IMG/VR virus record: IMGVR_UViG_2703718852_000002
Coordinates: 1-20,477 of that record
Strand: one strand, 5' to 3'
Length of the DNA stretch: 20,477 nucleotides
From: a virus
Lineage: Duplodnaviria > Heunggongvirae > Uroviricota > Caudoviricetes
Of the stretch, positions 1,054 to 20,477 are shown piece after piece; position 1 is the stretch's first letter; each line of letters starts with the position of its first letter. Position numbers and translations under genes: made by a program. Below the pieces are notes generated by a model that worked only from the letters and a program-made list of their open reading frames with translations, ran no database searches and was not told the origin of the DNA.

Positions 1054-1241
1054 AAAAAATGCCCTCCAATAGAGAGCATTTTTACTGTATGTATAACCAG
1101 TGTCAATGTATGAAATCCTGCGACCATACATCTCACTGAAGCCATAATGAAGTAGGCTATTCTTTTTGCTATGTGATCATGTAACTTTTGCGGTTAACCT
1201 GTGGCTCATTTTTATTTTAGGCGCAGATATAAAAGCAAAAG

Positions 1242-2907: not shown

Positions 2908-2914
2908 GGTGCTT

Positions 2915-3115
2915 ATGCTGACGAAAGAACCATCATTTGCATCGCTGCTGGTTAAACAAAGCCCGGCAATGCATTACGGTCACGGCTGGATCATGGGGGA
3001 GGATGGTAAACGCTGGCATCCGTGCCGTTCACAAGATGAATTGCTGGCAGAACTATCTACGAAAAAACGGGGGAACAAATGGCTATTGAAGGCACTGCGG
3101 CGACTGTTCCATTAA
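2915..3115 (+). CDS. Small protein at the 186 fil position (possible Fil-like cell-division inhibitor)
   Basis: ATG at 2915 preceded by TGAGGTG RBS that overlaps the cII stop. Position matches 186 fil. Sequence-level assignment is from memory and uncertain. Confidence 0.4.
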   Translation: MLTKEPSFASLLVKQSPAMHYGHGWIMGEDGKRWHPCRSQDELLAELSTKKRGNKWLLKALRRLFH

Positions 3116-3420
3116 GCCCCGGTGAACGCCTGAATGGACTTAATCACATTGCGGAGTTAAGGGCGAAAGTTTTTGGCCTGAATATTGAGTCAGAGCTTGA
3201 GCGGTTTATTAAAGATATGCGTGATTCACGGGATATTAATAGCGAACAAAATAAACGGGCACTGGCTGCCATATTCTTTATGGCAAAAATTCCAGCTGAA
3301 CGTCATAGCATCAGCATTAATGAGCTGACCACTGACGAAAAGCGGGAGTTGATTAAAGCAATGAATCATTTTCGTGCAGTGGTGAGCTTATTTCCCAGAC
3401 GGCTAACCATGCCGAATTAA
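3079..3420 (+). CDS. Hypothetical early-operon protein (113 aa)
   Basis: ATG at 3079 with G-rich RBS. Lies in the early rightward operon between cII and gene A. Function not recognisable from sequence. Confidence 0.5.
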   Translation: MAIEGTAATVPLSPGERLNGLNHIAELRAKVFGLNIESELERFIKDMRDSRDINSEQNKRALAAIFFMAKIPAERHSISINELTTDEKRELIKAMNHFRAVVSLFPRRLTMPN

Positions 3421-3487
3421 CCAACTAATGAAATTAATGGCGTAAACCCGCCGGGCATCCCTTTATCTAAATTCAGGAGAATTGATT

Positions 3488-3721
3488 ATGCGTAATATTG
3501 AAACCCTCTCGACCAAAACCGGACCGGATGACGCAGGGCTTAATATTTTACTGACAGAGGCTCGTCTGGAAGAACGCCGGGCAAGGGCTGAAGCAATGGC
3601 AGCTCGCCTTGATAGCCTGGCGTGTCATATCACATCCCGCCAGCTAACCCACGTCGAAGCGGCAGAACTGCTTCGTGTGACTGCTGAAGCAATCCAGAAC
3701 GAAGCGCAGGAGATCCACTAA
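3488..3721 (+). CDS. Hypothetical early-operon protein (77 aa)
   Basis: ATG at 3488 preceded by AGGAGA RBS. Its TAA stop overlaps the start of the next gene (TAATG at 3719-3723). Confidence 0.5.
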   Translation: MRNIETLSTKTGPDDAGLNILLTEARLEERRARAEAMAARLDSLACHITSRQLTHVEAAELLRVTAEAIQNEAQEIH

Positions 3722-3948
3722 TGGCTGATGCAATGGATCTCGTACAGCAGCGCGTTGAAGAAGAACGCCAACGCCATATCCGTGCTGCCCGTGCCAAAAC
3801 GCCGGGCGTGTCCCGCGTGCTTTGCATTGAGTGTGAAGCGCCAATTCCGCCAGCACGCCGCCGTGCCATTCCGGGTGTGCAGCTTTGCATTACCTGTCAG
3901 GAAATCGCAGAGCTGAAAGGCAAACATTACAACGGAGGTGCTGTATGA
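3721..3948 (+). CDS. TraR/DksA-family C4 zinc-finger protein (75 aa)
   Basis: Two CxxC pairs (CIEC ... CITC) spaced as in TraR/DksA-type zinc fingers. Translationally coupled to the upstream gene and to dam (ATGA overlap at 3945-3948). Confidence 0.7.
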   Translation: MADAMDLVQQRVEEERQRHIRAARAKTPGVSRVLCIECEAPIPPARRRAIPGVQLCITCQEIAELKGKHYNGGAV

Positions 3949-4802
3949 GCACCATCCTGAAATGGGCGGGAAATAAAACTGCCATAATGTCCGAACTGAA
4001 AAAACATCTTCCTGCTGGCCCGCGACTGGTTGAACCTTTCGCGGGTTCCTGTGCTGTGATGATGGAGACGGATTATCCCAGCTATCTGGTTGCGGATATT
4101 AATCCTGATTTAATCAACCTCTATAAAAAGGTTGCCGCTGATTGTGAATCGTTTATATCTCGCGCCAGAGTTTTATTTGAGATCGCAAACAGGGAAGTGG
4201 CTTATTACAACATAAGGCAGGAGTTTAATTACTCAACTGAAATTACTGATTTCATGAAAGCGGTATATTTCCTGTATCTCAATCGTCACGGTTACCGTGG
4301 TTTATGTCGCTATAACAAGAGCGGGCATTTCAACATTCCCTACGGTAATTATAAAAATCCGTATTTCCCTGAAAAAGAAATTCGCGCATTTGCAGAAAAG
4401 GCCCAGCGAGCAACGTTTATCTGCGCCAGCTTTGATGAAACGCTGGCGATGTTGAAGGCGGGGGATGTGGTGTATTGCGATCCGCCGTATGACGGTACGT
4501 TTTCCGGCTATCACACTGACGGCTTCACTGAAGATGACCAGTATCACCTGGCATCTGTTCTTGAACATCGGTCATCAGAAGGACATCCGGTCATTGTTTC
4601 TAACAGTGACACATCCCTGATCCGTTCGCTGTATCGCAATTTTACTCACCACTACATCAAGGCAAAACGCAGCATCGGTGTGGCAGCTGGCGAGGGTAAA
4701 TCAGCAACAGAAATCATTGCTGTTTCCGGGCCGCGCTGCTGGGTGGGATTTGATTATTCGCGTGGCGTGGATAGTTCTGCCGTGTACGGAGTACGTGCAT
4801 GA
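3945..4802 (+). CDS. DNA adenine (N6) methyltransferase, Dam family, orphan
   Basis: N-terminus [12 protein letters not shown], AdoMet motif PFAGSCAV and catalytic DPPY (YCDPPYDG). GGAGG RBS upstream of ATG at 3945. No adjacent restriction endonuclease gene. Confidence 0.85.
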
Positions 4803-7213
4803 GTCATGCCGATATGAACAACTGCTGCGGCTTTAACGAAGCTGCCGCATCGTTCTCATGGAACAGCTCGAAAAAGGCCATTAACCCTTATCTGGACCCG
4901 GTGGAAGTTGCGCCGGTTTCTACGCTTTCAAACCTGATCACTCTGTACGCTGCCGATAACGAGCAGGAACAGCTGCGCCGTGAGGCGCTGAGTGATCAGG
5001 TCTGGGAGCGTTATTTCTTTAATGAATCCCGTGATCCTGTCCAGCGCGAAATGGAACAGGATAAGCTCATTAGTCGGGCAAAGCTGGCGCATGAGCAGCA
5101 GCGTTTTAATCCGGATATGGTCATTCTGGCGGACGTCAACGCCCAGCCTTCCCATATCAGCAAGCCGCTGATGCAACGTATTGAATACTTCAGCAGCCTG
5201 GGCAGGCCAAAGGCTTATTCCCGCTATTTACGTGAGACGATTAAGCCATGTCTGGAACGACTGGAGCATGTACGCGACAGTCAGCTATCTGCATCTTTTC
5301 GCTTTATGGCAAGCCATGAAGGGCTGGACGGCCTGCTGATCCTGCCTGAAATGAGTCAGTTTCAGGTGAAACGCCTGTCCACCCTGGTAGCTGCGCATAT
5401 GAGTATGTGCCTTGATGCCGCTTGTGGCGATTTGTATGCCACCGATGACGTTAAGCCAGAAGAAATCCGCAATACATGGGAAAGGGTGGCAGCGGAAACC
5501 CTGCGTCTGGATGTCATCCCGCCTGCGTTTGAGCAACTCCGTCGGAAAAGAAACCGCCGTAAACCCGTGCCCTATGAACTCATTCCGGGTTCGCTGGCGC
5601 GTATGTTGTGCGCCGACTGGTGGTATCGGAAATTATGGAAGATGCGTTGCGAATGGCGGGAAGAGCAGTTGCGTGCTGTCTGCCTTGTCAGCAAAAAAGC
5701 ATCTCCCTATGTCAGCTATGAAGCCGTGTTGCATAAACGTGAGCAGCGCCGTAAGTCGCTGGAGTTTTTCCGTTCTCATGAACTGGTGAACGAAGACGGC
5801 GACACGCTGGACATGGAGGATGTGGTAAACGCCAGCAGCAGCAACCCTGCGCATCGCCGCAATGAGATGATGGCCTGTGTTAAAGGTCTGGAGCTTATCG
5901 CGGAAATGCGCGGTGACTGCGCCGTTTTCTACACCATCACCTGTCCGTCACGTTTCCATTCCACGCTAAATAACGGCAGGCCCAACCCGACCTGGACAAA
6001 TGCGACGGTAAGACAAAGCAGCGATTATCTGGTCGGTATGTTTGCTGCATTTCGTAAGGCGATGCACAAAGCCGGGTTGCGCTGGTATGGCGTGCGGGTG
6101 GCTGAGCCGCATCACGACGGCACAGTTCACTGGCACCTGTTGTGTTTCATGCGCAAAAAAGACCGCCGCGCCATTACAGCATTGTTGCGTAAGTTTGCTA
6201 TCCGTGAAGACCGCGAGGAGCTGGGCAATAACACGGGGCCGCGCTTTAAGTCTGAGCTGATTAACCCGCGCAAAGGAACGCCGACAAGCTACATAGCGAA
6301 ATACATCAGTAAGAACATTGACGGGCGTGGTCTGGCTGGCGAGATCAGCAAGGAAACGGGTAAATCTCTGCGTGATAACGCTGAATACGTGAATGCCTGG
6401 GCGTCTTTGCATCGTGTTCAGCAATTCCGCTTCTTTGGCATTCCGGGGCGTCAGGCTTACCGTGAACTGCGATTGCTGGCTGGTCAGGCGGCAAGGCAAA
6501 AGGGGGACAAAAAAGCAGGTGCGCCGGTACTGGATAACCCGCGCCTTGATGCCATCCTGGCTGCTGCTGATGCTGGTTGTTTTGCCACCTACATCATGAA
6601 GCAGGGCGGCGTACTGGTTCCCCGTAAATATCACCTCATCAGAACCGCTTATGAAATCAACGAAGAGCCGACCGCCTATGGCGATCACGGCATTCGTATT
6701 TATGGCATCTGGTCACCCATTGCAGAGGGCAAGATCTGCACTCATGCAGTGAAGTGGAAAATGGTTCGTAAAGCCGTTGACGTTCAGGAGGCGGCAGCCG
6801 ACCAGGGCGCTTGCGCCCCTTGGACTCGTGGCAATAACTGTCCCCTTGCTGAAAATTTGAACCAACAGGAGAAAGATAAATCAGCTGATGGGGACCCCAG
6901 AACGGACATTACCAGCATGGATGACAAGGAGTTGCACGATTACCTGCACAGTATGAGCAAAAAAGAGCGCCGGGAACTGGCAGCAAGGTTACGCCTGGTG
7001 AAACCGAAACGGCGTAAAGACTACAAACAGCGAATTACAGACCATCAGCGACTGCAGCTCGTGTATGAGCTGAAGTCCAGAGGATTTGATGGCAGCGAGA
7101 AAGAGGTCGATTTACTCCTTCGCGGAGGCAGTATTCCGTCAGGAGCAGGCCTGCGTATCTTCTATCGGAACCAGCGTTTGCAGGAAGATGATCAGTGGCG
7201 GAACCTGTATTAA
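4799..7213 (+). CDS. Replication initiation protein, P2 gpA-like rolling-circle endonuclease (804 aa)
   Basis: HUH-type motif ([15 protein letters not shown]) and paired-tyrosine motif (YIAKYISK) typical of RCR initiators. Size and position match P2/186 gene A. ATG overlaps the dam stop (ATGA at 4799-4802). Confidence 0.9.
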
Positions 7214-7307
7214 TTACGCGGGTTAACAATTCGTGCTCTTAATAATACCAGGCATATCAGGCTGATGAACGTAAAAAAACGTTTTACATCAGTAAGATTA
7301 TTATATA

Positions 7308-7323
7308 CTGTAAATATAAACAG
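7308..7323. promoter_or_regulatory. LexA box (SOS operator) CTGTAAATATAAACAG upstream of the tum/DinI-like operon
   Basis: Exact CTGT-N8-ACAG palindrome with an AT-rich centre and TA/TG flanks (tactgtaaatataaacagtg). Overlaps candidate -10 TATACT at 7304-7309; candidate -35 TTTACA at 7283-7288. Confidence 0.7.
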
Positions 7324-7366
7324 TGGTTATACATACAGTATTGCGTGTGGTGTCATAGGAGGAAAG

Positions 7367-7555
7367 ATGCAGGACTATTTTTTGGAGTCTTTGAAGCTCC
7401 AGCGCATTGATTTTTTTCTTAAGCTTGTAGCGGCTAGTGAGTGTAGTGATGAAGAGAAGGGGCTGGCTCTGCAGTGGGTTTCTGAATTGACTGATGAACT
7501 CATGGCAAAAATCAGAACCCACGAATACAACCGCTCAATGGATGTCATCAGCTGA
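7367..7555 (+). CDS. Hypothetical 62-aa protein, first gene of the SOS-controlled operon (possible antirepressor N-terminal module)
   Basis: ATG at 7367 with a strong AGGAGG RBS, about 45 nt downstream of the LexA box. The ORF-track start at 7265 would include the operator and is rejected. Confidence 0.5.
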   Translation: MQDYFLESLKLQRIDFFLKLVAASECSDEEKGLALQWVSELTDELMAKIRTHEYNRSMDVIS

Positions 7556-7565
7556 GGTGACTTTT

Positions 7566-7799
7566 ATGCGCATTGAAATAATGATCGATAAAGAGCAGAA
7601 GATTAGCCAGTCTACCCTGGACGCCCTTGAATCCGAGCTTTACCGCAATCTGCGCCCCCTGTATCCCAAAACGGTAATTCGCATTCGCAAAGGTAGCTCT
7701 AACGGTGTGGAACTAACCGGACTGCAACTGGACGAAGAAAGAAAACAAGTGATGAAAATTATGCAGAAGGTGTGGGAAGACGACAGCTGGCTGCATTAA
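7566..7799 (+). CDS. DinI-family protein (77 aa), as in the C-terminal part of 186 Tum
   Basis: MRIEIMIDKEQ... aligns by eye with E. coli DinI (MRIEVTIAK...; conserved W-E/D-D..W near the C-terminus). AGGTGA RBS upstream. Sits under the LexA-box promoter. Confidence 0.8.
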   Translation: MRIEIMIDKEQKISQSTLDALESELYRNLRPLYPKTVIRIRKGSSNGVELTGLQLDEERKQVMKIMQKVWEDDSWLH

Positions 7800-7933
7800 G
7801 AAACGTTGCTGGCGTCTGAACTTGCTTCTGGCGTCAGCAAGGTTGAACAACGAGCCCTTGCGAGGCGTTAGCTCTGTAGTGCATGTCTATGCCGCATGAG
7901 ATCGCATGATCGTTTGAGGATCGTTTTTGCTAA

Positions 7934-7958
7934 GGCCCGCCAGAACTGGCGGGCTTTT
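7934..7958 (+). terminator. Rho-independent terminator closing the early/SOS region
   Basis: GC-rich stem ggcccgccag / ctggcgggc with a short loop, followed by TTTT at 7955-7958. Confidence 0.6.
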
Positions 7959-8196
7959 GCGTAGATCATGCAGGTGCATGAAAACCACTACATAAAGCGG
8001 GCAGGCGTGGCGGGGATACGAGCGCGCGCTGATAGGGTAATCGTCAAAACAGGCATCAGCTAGGTTGAGTTGTAGCGGTGCTTAAGTTTGCTCGTTGTTT
8101 GATAGAGCTTAATGTATGTAATTGCCTACAGCTGTGGTTATCTATTAACATGTAAGGATAAGGTCACTTGCTCGCTGCCATTAGAAGAGGAACTGG

Positions 8197-8667
8197 ATGT
8201 CTATCGAGGAAAAATTTTTTAGTGATATCGATTTAAAAGATCCGTTTTTTAACAGCCTAAGAGCTGATTATGAAGGATTTGATGTTTGGTTTCTCTCAAA
8301 AGGTAAAAATAAGGCGTTTGTATCACGTAATGAATTAGGTGAAATCGATGGTTTTCTCTATTTGAAAATAGAAGATGAAGAGTTGAGTGATATGACTCCA
8401 ACGTTTCCAAAGATGAAGCGAGTAAAGCTTGGCACATTTAAAATCGATGCTCATGGAACCAAACTTGGAGAGCGTTTTATTAGAATTATGTTTCAATTTG
8501 CTATGAGAAACAAACTAAAAGAAGTATATGTTACTATATTTGATAAGCATTCAGGATTAATTCGCTTATTAACTAAATATGGTTTTGTTTTAAAGGCGAG
8601 GAAAAATCTTTCTACGATTAATGGGCAAGAAGGTGTATACTTTAAAAACTTGGTATGGAAGGAGTAA
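8197..8667 (+). CDS. Cargo protein 1 (156 aa), unknown function; weak GNAT-like resemblance in the C-terminal half
   Basis: ATG at 8197 with AGAAGAGG RBS. AT-rich codon usage. Segment KLGERFIRIMFQFAMRNKLKEVYVTIFDKHSGLIRLLTKYGFVL is reminiscent of an acetyltransferase core but does not fit the canonical motif cleanly. Confidence 0.6.
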   Translation: MSIEEKFFSDIDLKDPFFNSLRADYEGFDVWFLSKGKNKAFVSRNELGEIDGFLYLKIEDEELSDMTPTFPKMKRVKLGTFKIDAHGTKLGERFIRIMFQFAMRNKLKEVYVTIFDKHSGLIRLLTKYGFVLKARKNLSTINGQEGVYFKNLVWKE

Positions 8668-8670
8668 AAA

Positions 8671-9252
8671 ATGAGCTATGCTAATTATCCCTTAGTCAAA
8701 TTGCAGGGGAGAAATTATTTATTAAGTATTTATCCTGCATGGCATACACGTCTTTTCCCTGAGTCAAAACTCCACAATGAGAGTGCTGGTATCATCGCTG
8801 ATATATCACATACCAACAGTATTGAAAAAGTATACTTAACAAAAATGCATGGGGTAGCCAGCCTAAAGCCTGGAGATAATTTGCTTATTTATCGTACTTC
8901 AGATGGACAAGGTCCAGCTCGGTTTAGATCTGTTGCAACTTCAGTGTGTGTGGTTCAGGAAATTAAAGATATTCACGATTTCTTAACTTATGAGGAATTT
9001 AAGAATTACTGTGAACCTTATAGCGTTTTTGATGAAGATGAGTTACAGCTTCTATATATGAAAAAAAATTATCCGATAATTATACGGTTTACTTATAATT
9101 TCCCTTTGGAAAAAAGAGTTATTCGTGATGAAATCATGAATATTACAGGTTATACCAATAGTGATTATTGGGGTTTTTTACCACTAACTGATTCAGCATT
9201 TAAGCAGATTGTCTTACAGGGAGGTGTTGATGAAAGTTTTATTATCGATTAA
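8671..9252 (+). CDS. Cargo protein 2 (193 aa), unknown function
   Basis: ATG at 8671, 3 nt after the stop of cargo 1, with GGAAGGAG RBS. Overlaps the start of cargo 3. No recognisable motif. Confidence 0.6.
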   Translation: MSYANYPLVKLQGRNYLLSIYPAWHTRLFPESKLHNESAGIIADISHTNSIEKVYLTKMHGVASLKPGDNLLIYRTSDGQGPARFRSVATSVCVVQEIKDIHDFLTYEEFKNYCEPYSVFDEDELQLLYMKKNYPIIIRFTYNFPLEKRVIRDEIMNITGYTNSDYWGFLPLTDSAFKQIVLQGGVDESFIID

Positions 9253-9601
9253 GCCAGAGTATGCAGAGAGTATACTTTCTGGTAAAAAAAAATATGAGTT
9301 TCGGAAAAATATTTTTAGAAATAAAAATGTTGATACGATAGTTATTTACGCAACGATGCCGGTTGGCAAAGTAATAGGTGAATTTAAAGTAGGAGATATT
9401 CTTGCTCTATCCCCTTCAGAATTGTGGGATAAAACGAAAGCTCATGCAGGAATTACACATTCTTTTTTTAAAGATTATTTCCACCAAAGAGAAAAGGCTT
9501 TTGCTATTTCCATCAAAAGCCCTAAAAGATATAAATTCCCTGTCGACTTAAATGAGTTGATTCCCGGCGGCGTCGCCCCACAGTCTTATCGTTATTTATA
9601 A
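9230..9601 (+). CDS. Cargo protein 3: ASCH-domain (PUA-like) protein (123 aa)
   Basis: ATG at 9230 preceded by GGAGGTG RBS. N-terminal MKVLLSIKPEYAESILSGKKKYEFRK carries the ASCH signature GxKxxExR seen in E. coli YqfB (GRKTITIR). Confidence 0.65.
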   Translation: MKVLLSIKPEYAESILSGKKKYEFRKNIFRNKNVDTIVIYATMPVGKVIGEFKVGDILALSPSELWDKTKAHAGITHSFFKDYFHQREKAFAISIKSPKRYKFPVDLNELIPGGVAPQSYRYL

Positions 9602-10141
9602 TGTTGTCTGGGCATGTTTCTTAACCATGCCCAGTTTTTCTAGGGCAATAGATAAATCGTTTGTTGTTGGGGATTCTAAGATAATTAATGGTACATTGAT
9701 TTTATTTGTAACATATTTTGCGTTTTCTCTTTCAGCTTCCATCAGCTTATTTAAATCATAAGTAATATCACTCCCATCTCGTTTCATTATTCGTTCTCTA
9801 ATTGTATCGGGAGACTCCTCAACTAAAATTACTCCATCTAGCCCCATTTCCTCAAATACTTCTTGCTTGAGAACTTCAATATCTCCATTTTTATTTATTA
9901 AGGTAAAATGACCATCCAATAAAATATTGGATACCTTTAACTTTAATGCATTAAGTGCCGTAAGTAATATTGATTGGTTTTTATCAGGTGTGGCCGTTAA
10001 CTTACTGTTATCAAATTTAATATTAGAATTATTTTTTATAAGTTCGCTTGCGCTTACATGAGTTACCCCGAAATCATCTTTTGCAAATGAACACAAGTAA
10101 CCTTTGCCTACACCATGAACACCTGCTATGAAAATTAACAT
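9596..10141 (-). CDS. Cargo protein 4: small P-loop NTPase / nucleotide-kinase-like protein (181 aa)
   Basis: Walker A motif at the N-terminus (IFIAGVHGVGKGYL) and Walker B-like hhhhDG (ILLDGHF). ATG at 10139-10141 with GGAGG RBS. Convergent with cargo 3; the 3' ends overlap by 6 nt. Confidence 0.7.
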   Translation of the reverse strand: MLIFIAGVHGVGKGYLCSFAKDDFGVTHVSASELIKNNSNIKFDNSKLTATPDKNQSILLTALNALKLKVSNILLDGHFTLINKNGDIEVLKQEVFEEMGLDGVILVEESPDTIRERIMKRDGSDITYDLNKLMEAERENAKYVTNKINVPLIILESPTTNDLSIALEKLGMVKKHAQTTL

Positions 10142-10206
10142 AGTATTACCTCCGTTTATTTATTTATGTTAGAATGTTATAGCCTTAGCATAGTAGAGGA
10201 TAGAGC

Positions 10207-10584
10207 ATGAAGTTTCAAGCTATATCGATTTTGACTCCAGCGGTAGAAAATATTATAAATGGTTCTAAATCTATCGAAATACGGTCGTGGTATCCTGAAA
10301 CGATACCATTAAAAAACGTCATTCTTGTTCAGAATGATAAATATCTTAAAAATCAAAGCGATATAGATCATGGGGTGGCTATGGCTATTGTCGATTTTGT
10401 TTCAGTTAGAAATTGGTCATATGAGGATTACTTAAAACAAAACCAAGAAACAACTCTTAATAAGCCTTGGTCTCCAGGTTATTATGTGTGGGAAATTAAA
10501 AATGTTAGAATTTTAAAAAAATCTATTCCTTGTGTGGCGAGGAAAGGTATTTATACAATAGATTTAAATATGGATTATATATAA
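10207..10584 (+). CDS. Cargo protein 5: second ASCH-domain (PUA-like) protein (125 aa)
   Basis: ATG at 10207 with GAGGA RBS. Motif NGSKSIEIRSW fits the ASCH GxKxxExR signature. Divergent from cargo 4. Confidence 0.65.
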   Translation: MKFQAISILTPAVENIINGSKSIEIRSWYPETIPLKNVILVQNDKYLKNQSDIDHGVAMAIVDFVSVRNWSYEDYLKQNQETTLNKPWSPGYYVWEIKNVRILKKSIPCVARKGIYTIDLNMDYI

Positions 10585-10595
10585 GGTATTGTGAG

Positions 10596-11387
10596 ATGTG
10601 TGGTGCCATTCTTCGAAATATTAAGCGTTATGCCATTATTTATTCACTGTTGTTTTTGGCTTTTATTTTAATGCTGATAGTGTTTGTTAGCTATGTTTGT
10701 AAATTTGGAGTGTATTCATGGAGTGATTCCGTAGAGAAATGGGGACAGTTTGGCGATTATATTGGTGGTGTACTGAATCCTGCTCTGGCCTTTATCTCTA
10801 TCATGCTTGTTTGTTTCACACTATATTCTACATCTAGGCAGTCATCTATTCAGTCATTCGAGTCTGTGTTATTTGAGTTACTAAGATTTCATAAAGATAA
10901 CTTATCAGAAATTAAAACAACGTATTCAGATGGAAAAGTGTATGTAGGACGGGAGGCTCTTTCATTATACATTACCGAAGTGAAGTTTAACCTACTTAAT
11001 ATTGTGGATGATTCACTTCCTTTGGATGAAAGGTTAGAGCTTTCAGTTAATATGGTTTATCTGGAAGGTGACAATTTTGCGAATGTGGGACATTATTTCA
11101 GGAATATTTACCATATTTTTAAACATATCAATGACTCTAACTATTTGACTGAGAAAGAAAAAACCAAGTATGCGAAATTAGTTAGAGCACAAATATCTTC
11201 TATAGAATCTGGCGCGATGCTATTAAATGGTTTTTCATCGGTAGGAAAGCCTGCCAAGAAATTTATTGAAAAATATTCTCTCCTTCAGGGGTTTAGTTTA
11301 AGTAAGGAATTCAAGCAGCAATTACATGATTTAGGTGCCTTAAAATTATACGATGACGTTGCTTATGAGGATAAAAAAGGGCATTAA
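10596..11387 (+). CDS. Cargo protein 6: membrane protein with two N-terminal TM helices and a cytoplasmic C-terminal domain (263 aa); candidate effector
   Basis: ATG at 10596, 12 nt after the cargo 5 stop. Hydrophobic segments IIYSLLFLAFILMLIVFVSYV and LNPALAFISIMLVCFTLYS. The ORF-track start at 10530 is TTG inside cargo 5 and is rejected. Confidence 0.6.
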   Translation: MCGAILRNIKRYAIIYSLLFLAFILMLIVFVSYVCKFGVYSWSDSVEKWGQFGDYIGGVLNPALAFISIMLVCFTLYSTSRQSSIQSFESVLFELLRFHKDNLSEIKTTYSDGKVYVGREALSLYITEVKFNLLNIVDDSLPLDERLELSVNMVYLEGDNFANVGHYFRNIYHIFKHINDSNYLTEKEKTKYAKLVRAQISSIESGAMLLNGFSSVGKPAKKFIEKYSLLQGFSLSKEFKQQLHDLGALKLYDDVAYEDKKGH

Positions 11388-12230
11388 ATGCCCTTATCTT
11401 GGTCAAGGATGTAGTCATTAAATGACACAATATTTTGATTTATCCAGGTGTTTAGCTCAACTAGTCTTTTCTGCAAAGGAACCAACTCATTTCTGACAAA
11501 AACCTTCGCGGCTTTTTCCACATCCCCAAACCCTCCAACATTATTAGGCATAATCCCCATCATTTGCGGCGGCACGCGGTGCGCAGCCATCATGTCATCA
11601 CGGCTCACGTTCTTGATATTCAGAAACTCATCCTTCGCCGCAACTTCTGACAATGGGATAATCTGAAGCCCGTCCTTTTTGCCGTTAGGCGAGTACATAA
11701 ACAGGTTGCGGAAGTTGCCCGGACCTTTGGCGCTTTTCATCGCATTGCGGAGGTTGTTCACATCTTCCTGGTTCTGCGCGGCATCGGTCATGTACATGAT
11801 GAAGCCTGCATGACTGCCGTTAATGTAATACTTCCGGCGGAACAGCGTGGCGGACTCGTTGAGCAGGGCTGACGGAATGGCAGAAAGATAACCTGGCAGG
11901 CCGTAGATCTCCTGGTTGATGTCCGGTTCCATCAGATGAAAAATGCTGCCTTTCGTGAACTGATACGGCTGGGTTGTCATACCGTATTGCACAAACCAGT
12001 AGGTATCCAGGTCTAACCCGCGTCGGGTATATTTTGCCAGAGCAGGCTCAAGGGCGATAACTTCACCGAAGCGGTTCGTGCGTTTCTCCAGGTAGGCGTT
12101 ACCAAATACCAGATAGTCCTGCACAAAACGTGAAAAAGCCTGCTGGCTGAGCAGCGGGTGAGGGATGTAGGTACTGGTCAGAATGTTGCATTTTACTGCA
12201 ATCGGTGACCGGAAGCAGAGCCGGTAATGG
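11384..12230 (-). pseudogene. Q: Portal protein gene remnant (P2 gpQ-like), 5' part deleted
   Basis: The C-terminal ~270 aa of the 317-aa ORF read as a P2-family portal (...AAHRVPPQMMGIMPNNVGGFG...FNDYILDQDKGI). The N-terminal ~30 aa of the ORF are antisense to the J remnant and not portal-like. Upstream boundary is approximate. Confidence 0.6.
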
Positions 12231-12439
12231 CAGCGGCAAAAGCCAGTCTGCAGAAGTACATTGCCAGCCAGACGAGGCTTGGTCGGGATATTCGCCGTAG
12301 CGCCATCTTTGCTGCTCTGCATGTTGAGGGTGTTCAACGTGTGGAACTGGCTTCTCCGCTGGCGGATGTGGTCCTGAACAAAACACAGGCGGCATCATGT
12401 ACGCAGTGGAGCGTAACCAACGGAGGAACGGATGAATAG
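12227..12439 (+). pseudogene. J: Baseplate protein J gene remnant (3' end only)
   Basis: A 70-aa ORF ending 5 nt into gene I, where the gpJ C-terminus would sit. No full-length J upstream; abuts the portal remnant. Confidence 0.45.
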
Positions 12440-13037
12440 TCTGCTGCCACCGGGTTCAACTTCACTGGAGCGCCGACTGGCGCAAACCTGTAGCGGGATT
12501 TCTGATTTGCAGGTGCCGCTGCGTGACTTGTGGAATCCGGCTACCTGTCCGGTCAGCTTCCTGCCTTATCTCGCCTGGGCGTTCTCTGTGGATCGCTGGG
12601 ACGAGGGCTGGACAGAAAGCGTCAAACGCCAGGTAGTGAAGGATGCTTTTTATATTCATCAGCATAAAGGAACCACCAGTGCCGTGCGGCGGGTGGTGGA
12701 ACCGTTCGGATTCCTGATCCGCATTATTGAGTGGTGGCAGACCGGAGAAACACCGGGCACGTTTCGCCTGGATATCGGCGTGCAGGACCAGGGCATCACT
12801 GAAGATACCTATCTGGAACTTGAGCGACTGATAAGCGATGCCAAACCATGTAGCCGCCACATGATCGGCATGTCCATCAATCTGCAGACCAGCGGCCCGC
12901 ATTGGGTGGGAGCCGCCAGCTATCTTGGCGAAGAAATCACGATCTATCCGTATATCAACGAAACGATTATTTCCGGTGGCACCGCGCATGAAGGCGGGGC
13001 GGTCCATGTTATTGACACAATGAGAGTGAATCCATGA
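12432..13037 (+). CDS. I: Baseplate/tail protein gpI (201 aa)
   Basis: LRDLWNPATCPVSFLPYLAWAFSVDRWDEGW...GTFRLDIGV matches P2 gpI as recalled. GGAGGA RBS. Stop overlaps the H start. Confidence 0.8.
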   Translation: MNSLLPPGSTSLERRLAQTCSGISDLQVPLRDLWNPATCPVSFLPYLAWAFSVDRWDEGWTESVKRQVVKDAFYIHQHKGTTSAVRRVVEPFGFLIRIIEWWQTGETPGTFRLDIGVQDQGITEDTYLELERLISDAKPCSRHMIGMSINLQTSGPHWVGAASYLGEEITIYPYINETIISGGTAHEGGAVHVIDTMRVNP

Positions 13038-14480
13038 GCACAAAATTTTATACCCTGCTGACGGATATTGGCGCGGCGAAACTTGCCAGCGCCGCCGCGC
13101 TCGGTGTGCCGCTAAAAATTACCCATATGGCGGTGGGCGATGGCGGTGGAGTATTGCCAACGCCGGACGCAAAGCAGACGGCACTGGTAAATGAGAAACG
13201 CCGGGCTGCGCTGAATATGCTTTATATCGACCCGCAGAACAGCAGCCAGATTATTGCCGAACAGGTGATCCCTGAAAACGAGGGCGGTTGGTGGATACGT
13301 GAAGTGGGCTTGTTTGATGAGTCCGGGGCATTGATTGCCGTGGGCAACTGCCCGGAAAGCTATAAGCCGCAACTGGCTGAAGGTAGCGGGCGCACTCAGA
13401 CCGTGCGCATGGTGCTGATTACCAGCAGCACGGACAATATCACCCTGAAAATCGACCCTGCTGTAGTGCTGGCAACCCGCAAGTATGTGGATGACAAGGC
13501 ACTGGAGCTGAAGGTGTACGCGGATGATCAGATGGCAAAACATCTTGCCGCACCGGACCCGCATTCACAGTACGCGCCAAAAGCCAGCCCGACATTTACC
13601 GGAACCCCCAAAGCGCCAACGCCAGCGGCGGGGAATAATACCACGCAGGTTGCGACCACTGCGTTTGTACAGGCGGCACTGACGGCCCTTATTAATGGTG
13701 CGCCAGCCACGCTGGACACGCTGAAAGAAATAGCCGCAGCCATTAACAATGATCCGAATTTCAGTACCACCATTAACAATGCGCTGGCACTAAAAGCACC
13801 GTTGTCGAGTCCGGCACTCACCGGAACGCCAACAGCCCCCACGGCGGCGCAGTCGGTCAACAATACACAGATTGCCACTACGGCTTTTGTGAAATCGGCG
13901 ATTGCAGGAATGGTGGGTTCTGCACCTGCTGCACTGGATACACTGAACGAACTGGCGGCGGCACTGGGGAATGATCCGAACTTTGCCACGACAATGCTTA
14001 ATGCGCTGGCAGGTAAACAACCGCTGGACAATACGCTTACCAATTTGAGTGGAAAGGATGTGGCTGGTCTTCTCGCATACCTTCAATTGGGAGAAGCGGC
14101 AAAACGGGATGTCGGAACCGGTAATAATCAACTCCCGGACATGTCCGCATTTGGTATGTCGCGAAACGGACAAACTGCCTGGGATATTCTCCCAAATGGT
14201 ATGATTCGACAGGCTGGCACTGTGACACTGACACCAGTTGGTAACTTCAACGAAATTGTTCTTGGTGGAGTGACGTACTACACCCATTACTACAGGGTTA
14301 ATTTCCCCAGACAATTCCCAAATGCACAAATAGCAACGCTGGCAACACTAGCGAGCTCAGAGTTTTCGAAACAGACAACAATGGCCGGAAAATCACTGGC
14401 AACGCATCGCGATACTGATTCTGGCACTGACGTATCAAGAACGCGATTCACTGTGGCGTACGGCAGCAGTAACTCGAACC
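13034..14480 (+). pseudogene. H: Tail fiber gene H, N-terminal ~480 codons, 3' part deleted and fused to the T remnant
   Basis: MSTKFYTLLTDIGAAKLASAAALG...MAVGDGGG...ESYKPQLAEGSGR...LDTLNELAAALGNDPNFATTMLNALAGKQP is P2 gpH-like. After about 14470 the frame reads low-complexity Cys/Arg-rich text, and no G/tail-fiber-assembly gene follows. Confidence 0.7.
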
Positions 14481-14489
14481 AGCAGCGCG

Positions 14490-15734
14490 TTGTCCTGGCT
14501 GGCTGGCGCACCACTGGCACTGCTGCGACGCGGGCTTGCTTCATCGGGCAACGCCGCAGGTTTACTTACTGCGCCGTTGTCGTCTTTGCGCCGCACGGCA
14601 TCACTGACGGGAAATGTCCTGAAAACTGTAGCAGGTGCGCCGGTTGCACTTTTGCGGTCTGGATTATCCGGTTTACGTGCTGTTGCTGTGATGTTTATGA
14701 ATCCTCTGGCGGTACTGCGCGGTGGACTGGCCGCCGCAGGCACGGTGCTGCGAGTACTGGCATCTGGTCCACTGGCGATGCTGCGCGTTGCCCTGTATGC
14801 CATATCTGGTCTGTTAGGTGCTCTGCTCAGTCCGATAGGTCTTGTGGTTACTGCACTGGCGGGCGTGGCGCTGGTTGTCTGGAAATACTGGCAACCCATC
14901 ACCGCATTTCTCGGTGGCGTGGTGGAAGGATTCAAAGCGGCGGCAGGTCCCATCAGTGCAGCGTTCGAACCGCTTAAGCCCGTGTTCCAGTGGATTGGCG
15001 ACAAAGTGCAGGCGCTGTGGGGCTGGTTTACTGATCTGCTGACGCCCGTTAAGTCGACCTCTGCCGAACTGCAGAGCGCAGCGGCAATGGGGCGGCGATT
15101 CGGGGAGGCACTGGCGGAAGGGCTGAATATGGTCATGCATCCGCTGGACTCCCTGAAATCCGGCGTTTCCTGGTTGCTGGAGAAGCTCGGCATTGTCAGT
15201 AAAGAGGCCGCAAAGGCAAAACTGCCGGAAAGCGTGACGCGTCAGCAACCTGCGACGGTGAATGCAGACGGTAAAGTGATGATGCCATCGGGTGGTTTTC
15301 CATCATGGGGATATGGCTTTGCGGGGATGTATGACAGCGGCGGGTATATCCCGCGCGGGCAGTTTGGCATCGTCGGTGAAAACGGGCCGGAAATTGTTAA
15401 CGGCCCGGCAAATGTGACCAGCCGGAGAAATACAGCTGCACTGGCTGCCGTTGTTGCCGGAATGATGGGCGTTGCTGCCGCGCCAGCAGAGCTTCCACCG
15501 TTGCACCCTTTGGCACTTCCCGCGAAAGGTGGAGAAGCAATTGTGAGTCGCGCAGCCACTGTGCCGCTCGTTCAACGGATTGAGGCACCGACGCAGATCA
15601 TCATTCAGACGCAGCCAGGACAAAGTGCGCAGGATATTGCGCGGGAGGTGGCACGCCAGCTTGATGAACGTGAACGCAGGCTGAAGGCAAAAGCCAGGAG
15701 TAACTACAGCGATCAGGGGGGATACGACGCATGA
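14490..15734 (+). pseudogene. T: Tail tape-measure gene T, C-terminal ~414 codons only
   Basis: Ala/Gly/Leu-rich tape-measure-like sequence ending directly before gpU (ATGA overlap at 15731-15734). The ORF-track start at 14490 is TTG; this frame is open back to a stop at 14349-14351. The N-terminal half of T and the genes for sheath, tube, E and G are absent. Confidence 0.65.
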
Positions 15735-16216
15735 TGATGGTGCTGGGATTGTACGTGTTTATGCTGCGCACCGTTCCGTATCAGGAACTGCAGTATCAAC
15801 GCAGCTGGCGACATGCGGCAAACAGTCGGGTAAACCGACGTCCGTCCACGCAGTTTCTGGGACCGGAAAACGACATGCTGACGCTTTCCGGTGTTCTTAT
15901 GCCGGAAATAACAGGCGGCAGGCTGTCGTTGCTGGCACTGGAGCAGATGGCAGAACAGGGGAAAGCATGGCCCCTGATTGAAGGCAGCGGCACGATTTAC
16001 GGCATGTATGTGATTGAGGGACTGAATCAGACTAAAACGGAGTTTTTCCGCGACGGTATGCCGCGCCGGATTGAGTTCACCCTGTCGCTCAAACGAGTGG
16101 ATGAATCCCTGTCCGATATGTTCGGTGATCTCAGTGCGCAACTGAATAATCTGCAGGACACGGCAACGTCTGCCTTAAGCGATATCAGTAAAACGGTGGG
16201 AGGGCTGCTGTCGTGA
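15731..16216 (+). CDS. U: Tail protein gpU (161 aa)
   Basis: Position between T and D, and size close to P2 gpU (159 aa). ATG overlaps the T stop. Confidence 0.75.
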   Translation: MMMVLGLYVFMLRTVPYQELQYQRSWRHAANSRVNRRPSTQFLGPENDMLTLSGVLMPEITGGRLSLLALEQMAEQGKAWPLIEGSGTIYGMYVIEGLNQTKTEFFRDGMPRRIEFTLSLKRVDESLSDMFGDLSAQLNNLQDTATSALSDISKTVGGLLS

Positions 16217-17313
16217 ATTTCAGCTCTGAACTGCTTAACAAAGGCAACAAAACTCCCGCATTCAGCATCAGTATTGAGGGCAGGGATATCACCACTGTGC
16301 TGGATAACCGCCTGATGAGTTTGACGCTGACGGATAACCGGGGCTTTGAAGCGGACCAGCTTGATCTGGAGCTGGATGACGCTGACGGAAAAATCGTGCT
16401 GCCGCGCCGTGGTGCGGTTATTACGCTGGCGCTGGGCTGGAAGGGGCAGCCGCTTTTCCCGAAAGGGGCATTCACAGTGGACGAGATTGAACACACTGGC
16501 GCACCGGACCGCCTGACTATCCGGGCGCGAAGTGCTGATTTTCGGGAAACGCTGAATACCCGCCGTGAAAAATCGTGGCATAAGACCACCGTCGGGGAAG
16601 TGGTGAAGGAAATAGCCGCGCGGCACAAGCTGAAGATGGCACTGGGTAAAGACCTGTCGGATAAGCCCGTGGAGCATATAGACCAGACTAATGAGAGTGA
16701 CGGCAGTTTTCTGATGCGGCTGGCGCGACAGTACGGTGCCATCGCGTCGGTGAAAAATGGCAATCTGTTATTCATCCGGCAGGGGCAGGGCAAAAGCGCC
16801 ACTGGTAAACCTCTGCCAGTGATCACTATCACACGCAAGGACGGCGACAGTCACCGATTTACCCTGGCAGATCGCGGAGCCTACACGGGCGTAATTGCCA
16901 GCTGGTTGCATACCCGCGAACCTGCGAAGAAAGAAAGCACCACGGTGAAGCGTAAGCGCAGAACTAAGAAGCAGAAGAAAGAGCCAGAAGCGAAGCAGGG
17001 CGATTACCTGGTGGGTACGGATGAAAACGTGCTGGTACTTAATCGCACTTATGCCAACCGGAGCAACGCCGAACGAGCGGCGAAAATGCAGTGGGAACGC
17101 CTGCAACGCGGCGTTGCGTCATTTTCGCTACAACTGGCAGAAGGGCGGGCAGATCTCTACACGGAAATGCCTGTGAAGGTCAGTGGTTTTAAACAGCCGA
17201 TAGATGATGCGGAATGGACCATTACGACTCTGACACATACTGTCAGCCCGGATAATGGTTTTACGACCAGTCTGGAGCTTGAAGTGAGGATTGATGATTT
17301 CGAAATGGAATGA
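16213..17313 (+). CDS. D: Tail protein gpD (366 aa)
   Basis: Resembles P2 gpD (...LTLTDNRGFEADQLDLELDD...TIRARSADFRETL...RLARQYGAIASVKNG...). GTG start overlaps the U stop (GTGA). Confidence 0.8.
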   Translation: MNFSSELLNKGNKTPAFSISIEGRDITTVLDNRLMSLTLTDNRGFEADQLDLELDDADGKIVLPRRGAVITLALGWKGQPLFPKGAFTVDEIEHTGAPDRLTIRARSADFRETLNTRREKSWHKTTVGEVVKEIAARHKLKMALGKDLSDKPVEHIDQTNESDGSFLMRLARQYGAIASVKNGNLLFIRQGQGKSATGKPLPVITITRKDGDSHRFTLADRGAYTGVIASWLHTREPAKKESTTVKRKRRTKKQKKEPEAKQGDYLVGTDENVLVLNRTYANRSNAERAAKMQWERLQRGVASFSLQLAEGRADLYTEMPVKVSGFKQPIDDAEWTITTLTHTVSPDNGFTTSLELEVRIDDFEME

Positions 17314-17403
17314 TTCTTCGCAATGGAGAACTTTTAAGTTTGCAAAATGGAATAATGCGGTATCATTATTGTGAATTTAGCAAAAATGGGGAGAGCTCGA
17401 AAA

Positions 17404-17622
17404 ATGATGATTTGCCCACTGTGTGGAAGTGCCGCCCATACTCGCAGCAGTTTTCAGGTATCTTCATTGACCAAAGAGCGTTACAACCAGTGCCAGAACA
17501 TTAACTGCAGCCATACTTTTGTTACCCATGAAACTTTTGTTCGTTCGATTGCAACGCCAAAAGAGTCAAATCCGGTTCAGCCGCATCCAATGAAATCAGG
17601 ACAGGTGGCGCTCTCTCTTTGA
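17404..17622 (+). CDS. ogr: Late-gene transcriptional activator Ogr (186 B-like), C4 zinc finger
   Basis: MMICPLCGSAAHTRSS...ERYNQCQNINCSHTF matches the P2 Ogr zinc-finger pattern (CPLC...CQNxNC). ATG at 17404 chosen over the ORF-track start at 17371. Confidence 0.85.
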   Translation: MMICPLCGSAAHTRSSFQVSSLTKERYNQCQNINCSHTFVTHETFVRSIATPKESNPVQPHPMKSGQVALSL

Positions 17623-17644
17623 CGCTGCCGCCATTTTGTCGCCA
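17623..17644. repeat. Right copy of the 22-bp att-core-like direct repeat (attR candidate); left copy at 19-40
   Basis: cgctgccgccaTtttgtcgcca at 17623-17644 versus cgctgccgccaCtttgtcgcca at 19-40 (21 of 22 identical). The right copy starts immediately after the ogr stop; the left copy lies inside the last codons of int. Confidence 0.6.
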
Positions 17645-17702
17645 TCGTTAAAAAACAGTGTTTCTAACATCATGATTTTAAACAGCTTAAATTTCAGGCA
17701 AC

Positions 17703-17745
17703 AAAAAACCCATCAACCTTGAACCGAAATGGCGGGGTTGATGGG
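17703..17745 (-). terminator. Putative ybjL terminator: hairpin followed by a T-run on the minus strand
   Basis: cccatcaacc / ggttgatggg 10-bp stem with a ~17-nt loop, followed on the minus strand by TTTTTT (plus-strand aaaaaa at 17703-17708). Confidence 0.4.
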
Positions 17746-17857
17746 CTCCACAAAATGGGGACATCAAAGAAAAGCAGTGGCACTAATTAAGACTGATGCC
17801 CTGCGGAAAAGTTCTGCGGTTGTGCAAAAAAATTTCATTTTCAGGGCAACTTCAGTT

Positions 17858-19543
17858 TTATCCTAATCCTGGCCATACCATGACGATGATTGTCCCTGCC
17901 AGCGTCAGCAGGACGTTGGCGATTGCATAGGTGCCCGCATAGCCCAGCGCCGGGATGTTACTGCGAGCTGTATCACTGATGATCTCCATTGCCGGCGCGC
18001 AGGTACGTGCGCCCATCATTGCGCCGAACAACAGCGCGCGGTTCATTCGCAATACATAAGCACCGAACAAGAAACAGATAACCACGGGCACCAGACTGAC
18101 AATCAATCCGGCAATCAACATCTGACCGCCAATCGCGCCCAGGCCGTTATTAATACCGCTACCGGCGCTCAGACCAACGCCTGCCATAAACACCATCAAG
18201 CCGAACTCTTTCACCATGCTTAATGCACCCTGCGGAATGTAACCGAAGGTCGGGTGGTTAGCACGCATAAAGCCCAGCATAATTCCGGCGAATAACAACC
18301 CGGCAGCGTTCCCCATGCCGAAACTGAATGTGCTGAACTGGAAGGTGATCATCCCGATCATCAGCCCAATAACAAAGAAGGCGCAGAATGCCAGCAGGTC
18401 AGTGACCTGGCTGTGAATCGAGATAAAGCCGATGCGATCGGCGATGGTTTTTACGCGGCGGGCATCGCCGCTGACTTGTAAAACGTCACCTTTGTTAAGC
18501 ACGACGTTGTCATCTATCGGCATCTCAATCTGGCTACGAATGACGCGGTTAAGGAAGCAACCGTGATCGGTCAACTTCAGTTGTGCGAGACGTTTACCTA
18601 CAGCGTTATGGTTTTTAACGACCACTTCTTCAGTGACGATACGCATGTCGAGAAGGTCACGATCGAAAACTTCTTTACCGTTACGGAAGCTGGGATCGAG
18701 TCGGGCATGGGCGTCGGGATAGCCTACCAACGCTATTTCATCGCCCATTTGTAGCACGGCATCACCGTCTGGATTTGCCAGAATCCCGTTACGTCGAATA
18801 CGTTCAATGTAGCAGCCGGTTTGTCGATAAATACCCAGTTCACGCAGATTTTTGCCGTCGGTCCAGGCCACCAGTTCCGGGCCGACGCGATAGGCGCGGA
18901 TCACCGGTAAATAAACCTTACGGTTGGCATCAGTGTCCAGGCCACGTTCGCGGGCGATTTGCTGGGCGCTGGTCTGTAAGTCCTGATGCTGCAATTTCGG
19001 CAAGTAACGCGCACCAACAATCAAACTCACCAGACCGATTAAATAGGTTAAGGCATACCCGAGGCTCAGATTATCCAGTGCCAGTGAGAGCTGCCTGCTT
19101 TCCATGCCGGAATGACGCAGTGTATCGCCAGCACCGACCAGAACCGGTGTCGACGTCATAGAGCCTGCTAACATACCGGCCGTCAGGCCAATATCCCAGC
19201 CAAACAGCTTACCTAACCCTAAGGCGATCACCAGCGCACTGCCAACCATCACCAGTGCTAACATTAGGTAATTTTTCCCATCGCGAAAAAAAATGGAAAA
19301 AAAGTTCGGTCCGGCTTCGACCCCGACGCAGAAAATAAACAGCATAAAGCCAAGATTAAGCGCATCGGTGTTAATGCTGAAATGTTGTTGGCCTAATAAC
19401 AGCGATACGACTAAAACGCCAATGGAATTACCCAGTTGGATCGAACCAAGTCGTAACTTTCCGAGACATAGCCCAAGCGCGAGGACCACAAATAATAACA
19501 GAATGTAATTCCCATTTAACAATTCGGCGACGTTTATATTCAC
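17858..19543 (-). CDS. ybjL: Putative transport protein YbjL (561 aa)
   Basis: Full-length ORF recognised as E. coli YbjL ([33 protein letters not shown]...), with N- and C-terminal membrane domains and central soluble repeats. Confidence 0.85.
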
Positions 19544-19812
19544 GGAGGCTAACTTCTTGTTTACTAGTAAGCTGTTGAAAGAAATGGTAATTTACGATAA
19601 TGTTTTTTACCAGAATTCAGGGCGCAGATTCATTCAGCGCACCTAAACGATAGTAAAGTAACAATATATTTTACTAGTGTAATCACATTAGGTATCAACG
19701 GCTATATGAATTGCGTTGGCCTATATTAGCATGGAATGCGAAGCGGCTTTATCTTACTGAACGCCACACTGGCGAAAAATGTGTTCGATAGACGCAGTGT
19801 CAGGAGGAACGA

Positions 19813-20190
19813 GTGAAACATAAACAACGTTGGGCGGGGGCAATCTGCTGTTTTGTCCTCTTCATTGTGGTGTGCCTTTTTCTGGCGACGCACATGAAAG
19901 GCGCTTTTCGGGCTGCCGGGCATCCTGAAATCGGCTTGCTATTTTTCATTCTTCCTGGAGCAGTCGCCAGCTTCTTTTCACAGCGTAGAGAAGTCCTGAA
20001 ACCTCTGTTTGGCGCAATGCTGGCGGCACCCTGTTCGATGCTCATTATGCGGCTGTTTTTTTCACCGACGCGCTCATTCTGGCAAGAGCTGGCATGGTTA
20101 CTAAGCGCGGTGTTCTGGTGTGCGCTGGGGGCACTGTGTTTCTTATTTATCAGTAGTTTGTTTAAACCACAGCACAGAAAAAATCAGTAA
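19813..20190 (+). CDS. ybjM: Inner membrane protein YbjM (125 aa)
   Basis: GTG start at 19813 with AGGAGG RBS. Hydrophobic 125-aa protein in the conserved position between ybjL and grxA. Confidence 0.75.
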   Translation: MKHKQRWAGAICCFVLFIVVCLFLATHMKGAFRAAGHPEIGLLFFILPGAVASFFSQRREVLKPLFGAMLAAPCSMLIMRLFFSPTRSFWQELAWLLSAVFWCALGALCFLFISSLFKPQHRKNQ

Positions 20191-20210
20191 AGCCCTCAAC
20201 GCGAGGGCTT
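20190..20210. terminator. Hairpin between the convergent ybjM and grxA genes, possible bidirectional terminator
   Basis: aagccctc / gagggctt stem with a 5-nt loop between the two stop codons. T-run is weak on both sides. Confidence 0.35.
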
Positions 20211-20219
20211 GTCAGACGA

Positions 20220-20477
20220 TCAGGCGTCCAGATTTTCTTTCACCCATGCAGCAAAATCGGTATAGCCGCCGATATGTTGCTGATCGACAAAAATCTGCGG
20301 CACGGTTTCTACGGGTTTACCTGCCTTTTGTTGTAGATCTTCTTTAGTGATCCCTTCCGCACGAATATCTACATACTGATACTGAAAATCATCGCGTTCA
20401 TTGCTCAATTTCTCAGCCAGATCTTTTGCACGCACACAGTAAGGGCAACCCGAACGACCAAAAATAACGGTTTGCAT
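20220..20477 (-). CDS. grxA: Glutaredoxin 1
   Basis: 85-aa ORF with the CPYC active site (MQTVIFGRSGCPYCVRAKDLAEKL...), matching E. coli GrxA as recalled. ATG at the window end (20475-20477). Confidence 0.9.
   Translation of the reverse strand: MQTVIFGRSGCPYCVRAKDLAEKLSNERDDFQYQYVDIRAEGITKEDLQQKAGKPVETVPQIFVDQQHIGGYTDFAAWVKENLDA

Follow-up and report, generated by a model that had tools for sequence, protein, structure and literature searches.

We found that positions 14459/14460 of the window, by which we mean the whole stretch of 20,477 nucleotides that was analysed, mark the place where one internal deletion took 5,916 bp out of a degraded P2-like prophage, a reading to which we assign a probability of about 0.9. 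The window is a segment of the Escherichia coli chromosome in which this prophage (Peduoviridae, Wadgaonvirus-like) lies beside ybjL. Collinear flanks, a seamless join of low homology and recurrence in separate assemblies, as expected of a deletion scar, were all observed, and the phenomenon as such is ordinary, scars of this kind being already known from prophages.

The reference used was L003, an intact P2-like prophage that E. coli Z226-5 (NZ_CP159644.1) carries at this ybjL site. Window positions 12189-14460 aligned with L003 12191-14461 at 97.2% identity, collinear with J'-I-H, and positions 14459-20369 aligned with L003 20378-26288 at 98.8% identity, collinear with T'-U-D-ogr-ybjL. In L003, the two blocks are separated by 5,916 bp (14462-20377) comprising nine genes or gene parts, with both the size and the gene content of the deletion being those read from a relative at 97-99% identity and not from the true parent. 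Since each flank matched at 97-99% identity (E = 0) loci lying 5.9 kb apart in intact relatives, a chance pattern is ruled out. In two megablast searches, one of 50,697 phage records and one of 5,426 complete E. coli genomes, the alignments broke at the identical two bases, 14459/14460, inside the interval 14350-14500 in which an earlier note, made from the letters alone, had rightly placed a deletion junction between H and T. The dinucleotide TA is the sole sequence common to the H and T parents at this junction. Specifically, the H parent reads GTGGCGTA/TACGAC, the T parent TTCCGTTA/CGGCAG and the window GTGGCGTACGGCAG; the corresponding longer sequences are CACTGTGGCGTA/TACGACACC, CCTTCCGTTA/CGGCAGCAG and CACTGTGGCGTACGGCAGCAG, respectively. 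Neither filler bases nor an IS sequence or its remnant was found at the join. The features of the window are listed in Table 1.

Table 1. Features of the degraded prophage in the window, in order of position.
Feature	Position	Strand	Basis or remark
Integrase	1-1131	-	Window layout; CI-type repressor next
Early genes, Dam-like methyltransferase, replication gene A	Gene A, 4799-7213		Window layout
Cargo island	About 7.2-11.4 kb		Between gene A and portal remnant
3' portal remnant	11384-12337	-	Followed by tail end of J
Deletion junction 1, portal remnant to J 3' end	12207..12208	.	2-bp GA microhomology, compared by eye
Full-length gpI-like tail protein of 201 aa	12432..13037	+	Tail_P2_I, E = 1.5e-54; length equals that of L003 gene 12433-13038
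H' native part, residues 1-476 of 494	13034..14460	+	BLASTP vs L003 H; Pfam
Orphan left crossover site, cix/gix-like, TTCTCGCATACC TT CAATTGGGAGAA	14070..14095	+	In H'
Deletion junction 2	14459..14460	.	2-bp TA in both parents, no filler; BLAST segments overlap
'T 3' remnant, residues 602-1025 of 1025	14460..15734	+	BLASTP vs L003 T
T DNA read out of frame as a continuation of H	14461..14977	+	171 codons plus stop
gpU-like tail protein, intact	15731..16216	+	ORF; Phage_P2_GpU on identical L004 gene; ATG overlaps T stop
gpD-like late control/tail protein, intact	16213..17313	+	ORF; Phage_GPD on identical L004 gene
ogr/Delta-like zinc-finger late activator	17404..17622	+	Gene call and Ogr_Delta in L004, 100% identical to window

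The layout to the right of the end of J is I, the H-like ORF, the T-like ORF, U, D, ogr and the host genes ybjL and ybjM. The H-like ORF (13034-14977) specifies 647 aa. A BLASTP comparison with the 494-aa H of L003 showed it to be identical at 465 of 480 positions (97%) and colinear as far as residue 476, beyond which the two are unrelated. Residue 476 is a tyrosine, and its codon (TAC, 14459-14461) was recreated by chance across the junction. The N-terminal Phage_tail_fib domain (PF12571, E = 6.7e-65), which spans residues 1-150, and the location right after gpI, whose gene overlaps the start of H, are those of gpH. The complete distal domain and the native stop are absent: Gp53-like_C occupies residues 386-469 and is cut at position 69 of the 84-position profile, and in place of the last 18 residues there are 171 codons read out of frame, with a stop at 14975-14977. 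Compared with L003 H, then, H' is missing 18 residues only, and most of the distal Gp53-like_C is present. The claim that only the conserved N-terminus remains and the receptor-binding distal part is lost thus proved wrong, probably having been measured against the 669-aa H of P2, for which the alignment is good no further than about residue 360. By contrast, the observation that the H-like frame is coherent to about 14470 and then reads low-complexity text agrees well with a match to intact H that ends at Y476 and is followed by 171 codons without homologue. The translation of these codons is rich in Gly, Arg, Ala, Cys and Ser, and no Pfam match was found past residue 469.

In the tape-measure gene, the retained part, 'T, is identical to L003 T at 415 of 424 residues (98%, BLASTP) and represents 41% of its length, and its DNA shares 99.8% identity with T of Escherichia phage 500465-1. 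The second frame that had been noticed, tape-measure-like, open from 14352 and ending at the start of U, was confirmed: it follows a TAG at 14349-14351, the match to T begins at its 37th codon (14460), and its stop (15732-15734) falls within the ATGA at 15731 with which U begins. Its openness upstream to 14352 is due to chance only, and the native start codon is absent. C-terminal gpT homology followed by gpU was found, and the full length, an own start, upstream E/E' and the N-terminal PhageMin_Tail domain (PF10145, residues 246-457 of intact T) were not, residues 1-601 having been lost. The earlier note was correct in that the 5' part of T is gone, but the loss is 59% of the gene and not the half.

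The codon phase of H runs from 14459 and that of T from 14460, and because of this 1-nt offset there is no H-T fusion protein; the description of H as fused to T goes too far. The 647-aa ORF is H followed by 171 junk codons and is a pseudogene. A continuous protein spanning both halves in intact phages, named beforehand as the finding that would speak for a genuine fusion gene and against a deletion scar, was not encountered: H-T adjacency was seen in none of 45 phage records, and none of 1,246 matching E. coli records covered both halves contiguously.

The 5,916 bp lost begin with the final 18 codons of H, followed in order by an invertible fibre segment, a DNA invertase gene, the sheath gene FI, the tube gene FII, E, E' and codons 1-601 of T. 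In L003, the counterpart of the first portion of this DNA consists of a 77-aa ORF, a reverse tail-fibre assembly gene, a reverse 169-aa ORF and a recombinase-family gene. An inverted-repeat pair at L003 14071-14096 and 15605-15630 flanks the reverse-oriented fibre-assembly gene, with the recombinase gene adjoining; the 26-bp inverted sites are TTCTCACATACC TT CAATTGGGAGAA in H and TTCTCCCAAACC AA CGTTTATGAAAA beside the recombinase gene, and the segment carries a small ORF and an alternative H C-terminus along with the tail-fibre assembly gene. The reverse-oriented block of L003 is a Cin/Gin-type invertible fibre segment and not the Z/fun of P2. The list of absent genes given in the earlier note is accordingly right for sheath, tube, E/E' and the 5' part of T, but not for Z/fun, in whose place L003 has the invertible segment and the invertase. 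In a consensus scan of the window, the crossover site in H' was the only match; the partner site and the invertase gene have been deleted.

The junction is real and not a mis-assembly. An exact-protein index placed the 647-aa chimeric ORF on 31 contigs, which are spread over 45 collection blocks of three sources (NCBI, ENA and Logan), the longest contig being of 4.89 Mb. For example, the contig from run SRR3971772 (L004) is 100% identical to window positions 3034-20477 (17.4 kb), and the contig from run SRR21939982 (L005) corresponds to the window with a third deletion, 2605-12057, while keeping junctions 1 and 2. No carrier seen falls below 99.99% identity. One might still suppose that an assembler had mistakenly brought together two separate contig ends, or collapsed a repeat, at 14459/14460, as the junction is absent from the 5,426 complete RefSeq E. 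coli genomes and exact 41-mer and 22-mer junction patterns had no match in species-representative genomes or JGI metagenomes. However, the species-representative collection holds one genome per species, making a null result there uninformative; the exact chimeric protein recurs across sources, an independent run shows this junction within surroundings that were deleted differently, and the flanks share 2 bp only, so there is no repeat to mislead an assembler. We regard an artefact as practically out of the question. The scar is vertically inherited in one E. coli lineage, in which a further deletion has taken place since. In E. coli records carrying the T region, that region runs uninterrupted across the breakpoint in 981 of 1,028.

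As to how the deletion arose, two ends sharing TA and joined without filler probably reflect RecA-independent illegitimate recombination at a 2-bp microhomology, with replication slippage or end joining as possible routes. The other two junctions are alike in this respect, with GA at junction 1 and TA at junction 3 (that of L005). In random joins, an overlap of 2 bp is expected in about 10% of cases and one of at least 2 bp with a chance of about 0.16 per junction; with three of three junctions having a 2-bp overlap, microhomology-assisted illegitimate recombination is mildly favoured, and use of microhomology at the three junctions is suggested.

The same dinucleotide overlap could be read differently, namely as the result of a Cin/Gin/Hin-type serine invertase having joined direct-oriented pseudo-sites, one close to where H ends and the other within T, at a TA core. 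The deleted segment did encode a DNA invertase, H contains a genuine crossover site, an overlap of exactly 2 bp is the size of an invertase core, and an independent deletion in another strain (L002) stops, on the H side, within the genuine site, although that break is 2 nt off the core and does not represent a precise exchange. Products of such enzymes (Cin/Gin/Hin/Pin) would have both breakpoints at the 2-bp core of crossover-like 26-bp sites, and those in the window do not. When every 26-mer from H through T was scored with a weight matrix built from eight half-sites of real crossover sites (L001 and L003), the breakpoint 26-mers scored -20 and -21, as compared to +29 and +32 for the real sites, ranked at the 72nd and 67th percentiles of the positions from H through T, and did no better when shifted by 1-2 nt. 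In addition, the real sites have TT and not TA as their core, and the same 2-bp signature is seen at junctions 1 and 3, neither of which is connected with the invertase. With breakpoints so unremarkable on the half-site matrix, the pseudo-site hypothesis was rejected, and an invertase-mediated deletion appears highly improbable.

An unequal or illegitimate exchange between co-resident P2-like prophages or between sister chromosomes, in place of an intramolecular deletion, would leave an identical scar. The best DNA matches of the two sides do differ, the variable part of H being 97.6% identical to the L003 type and the T part being 99.8% identical to phage 500465-1 vs 98.8% to L003; there are also up to nine matching places per genome, and some genomes contain several P2-like prophages. 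Mosaicism of P2-like phages through homologous exchange, however, predicts differing best matches in any case, and the order, orientation and chromosomal site are exactly those of a simple internal deletion, so we consider an inter-prophage exchange unlikely. A single internal deletion during prophage decay would have produced the out-of-frame H' that runs for 171 codons into T DNA and would have left 'T without its start codon and N-terminal domain.

Motifs of the Ogr-type late promoter (TGT-N12-ACA) were located in L003 at the expected intergenic positions, 4639 (P/O), 10547 (before V) and 16301 (before FI), and all three fall in DNA that is deleted from the window, with the late promoter of the F operon lying inside the segment lost at junction 2. 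The portal-to-J deletion and the deletion at junction 2 would together have removed every late promoter of this type. No TGT-N12-ACA motif was found in window positions 11428-19503, and no plus-strand sigma-70-like site was found upstream of I through D, the first one being that at 17339-17366, which precedes ogr. Since the late-promoter motifs are lost and no such sigma-70-like site is present, I, H', 'T, U and D are presumed to be promoterless relics and, judged from sequence, would be silent pseudogenes or relics, although read-through from upstream could still transcribe them. No secondary inactivating mutation was seen in I, 'T, U and D, which fits a recent deletion in carriers that are nearly identical; retention by selection is also compatible with it.

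These intact frames bear on a further possibility, that the 647-aa ORF, or a C-terminal T protein restarted at TTG 14490 or GTG 14922, is a new gene expressed for a host function. The ORF is long and uninterrupted, gene callers label it "phage tail protein", and 'T, U and D are free of secondary lesions. Against this, the join is out of frame, the 171 added residues have neither domain nor homologue, no intact phage carries such a gene, neither a late nor a sigma-70-like promoter is left upstream, and the high identity of the carriers means that recency explains the intact relics. We consider a functional new gene extremely improbable. The database label "phage tail protein" on the 647-aa ORF thus covers a pseudogene made of H and out-of-frame T DNA, and the downstream ORF of 270-414 aa may be annotated as a seemingly promoterless tape-measure fragment; beyond such annotation, the finding matters little.

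The remainder of the prophage has also been reduced. At junction 1, another 9.6 kb is missing between portal and J relative to intact prophages, window positions 11468-12208 corresponding to L003 1867-2607 (portal) and the sequence from 12189 onwards to L003 12191 onwards (J). The prophage is unable to build a tail or a head and should be scored as defective; it retains the integrase, the repressor, replication gene A and the anti-phage cargo island. The site of this island, between gpA and the portal, is a known defence hot spot of P2 (PMC9122126).

Independent deletions of the middle of the tail cluster were found in other E. coli strains (L002, H114 and H115), in which the 3' end of T and U-D-ogr are kept. 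It may be, although we view this as very unlikely, that the right arm (the C-terminus of 'T, U, D and ogr) is selectively retained; alternatively, this part of T could be a breakage hot spot. The T-side ends of the truncations are scattered over approximately 430 bp (L003 20378, about 20421, 20478 and 20809), two of them being 43 bp apart (window 14459 and a position equivalent to 14502). A hot spot in the form of a precise recurrent breakpoint was not found among the few truncations in the 1,028 E. coli records, a small sample with which a diffuse hot spot is compatible. If selective retention did occur, the arm could be of use to the host or to a P4-like satellite, for example through trans-activation by Ogr or through D/U acting as a decoy or exclusion factor.

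The closest systems for comparison are the intact Wadgaonvirus-like ybjL prophages (L003 and 500465-1, NC_049342), which occupy the same site, have the order J-I-H ... T-U-D-ogr-ybjL and match the flanks at 97-99.8% identity; the window differs from them in lacking the 5,916 bp that lead from H codon 476 to T codon 602. P2 itself (NC_001895) is more distant. The N-terminal approximately 360 residues of its H are 50% identical to those of the window, its distal part being unrelated, and its T has 815 aa vs 1025 aa in L003. U, D and ogr follow T in P2 in the same order as in the window, but P2, unlike L003, has Z/fun between G and FI and neither an invertible segment nor an invertase. An alignment with P2 H and T, proposed in the earlier note for mapping the breakpoint, did recover H to about residue 360 and T over P2 residues 586-736 (44% identity); since both proteins diverge in the relevant parts, however, P2 is a poor ruler for the breakpoint, and the intact prophage at ybjL took its place as reference.

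Invertases of the Cin/Gin/Hin/Pin type, such as Cin of P1, also recombine at secondary (quasi) crossover sites. The deletion resembles such events in the 2-bp overlap at the join and in the invertase gene and genuine crossover site of the parent, but differs in that its breakpoints have no similarity to the sites and its core dinucleotide is another one. Cryptic prophage remnants are exemplified by the P2 remnant ogrK-yegZ of E. coli K-12. Cryptic or "grounded" prophages decay via successive deletions (PMC6379469). The prophage in the window differs from these in being at an early stage of decay, with integrase, repressor, gene A and defence cargo whole and the relics without point lesions. 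It resembles them in that internal deletions have taken structural genes while the att-proximal genes and cargo stay, and in that the deletions are nested and stepwise, from the window to L005, thus offering a clean and datable example of stepwise prophage decay, with one lineage showing three nested deletions and a 2-bp microhomology at every one of them.

At junction 1 (window 12207-12208), the portal gene, at position 2607 of the intact P2-like prophage of E. coli Z226-5 (NZ_CP159644.1), is joined to the 3' end of J, at position ~12209, with the loss of ~9.6 kb comprising head, lysis and baseplate genes. The microhomology at this junction is a 2-bp GA, located within ~20 bp of imperfect similarity (overlap region 12189-12208). 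All three late-promoter motifs of the Ogr type (TGT-N12-ACA) in the intact prophage, at 4639, 10547 and 16301, lie inside the two segments deleted at junctions 1 and 2, and comparison of this motif over window 11428-19503 showed that no late promoter is left there for Ogr to act on. The ogr gene itself is retained, with a sigma-70-like site at 17339-17366.

One Cin/Gin-type crossover site, TTCTCGCATACCTTCAATTGGGAGAA, is left as an orphan in the tail-fibre remnant H'. Since both the invertase gene and the second site of the pair have been deleted, the fibre is fixed in one orientation.

We found that the hot spot for defence genes between P2 gpA and portal is occupied by a cargo island (window 8197-11387). 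Specifically, the A component of PDC-M11, a candidate defence system, is divided between two adjacent ORFs; the split could mark A as a pseudogene, or two genes may be its natural form. In addition, a gene for a Dam-like methyltransferase was observed within the early operon, immediately 5' of the replication gene A.

Positions of individual features (window coordinates unless stated otherwise; L005, SRR21939982)
Feature	Position	Remarks
Dam-like N6-adenine methyltransferase	3885-4802	Pfam MethyltransfD12, on the identical gene of SRR3971772
PDC-M11 A, first ORF	8197-8667	profile positions 11-160 of 357
PDC-M11 A, second ORF	8671-9252	profile positions 166-357 of 357
PDC-M11B/ASCH	9209-9601	
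AAA_17 kinase-like gene	9596-10141	minus strand
Second ASCH	10207-10584	weak match
putAbiC protein	10530-11387	
Orphan crossover site	14070-14095	inside H'
Junction 3	L005 9025-9026	window 2604/12058

The same prophage, with junctions 1 and 2 still present, was found in the sister assembly SRR21939982, in which a third deletion has removed window 2605-12057. Gene A and the defence island are thereby lost, together with a portion of the early region and the greater part of what remained of the portal gene. The microhomology at this junction 3 is again 2 bp, TA.

The prophage at the same ybjL site in NZ_AP027788.1 has degraded independently. In this locus, a 110-bp piece of H (11974-12083, equivalent to window 13973-14082), with J joined upstream, stops within the crossover site of the invertase, 2 nt short of the core, and the sequence continues in T from the equivalent of window 14502. 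The breakpoints in T of this prophage and of the window are just 43 bp apart. These findings could be a coincidence, could stem from a break that the invertase induced and that end joining then sealed, or could reflect a fragile stretch of T.
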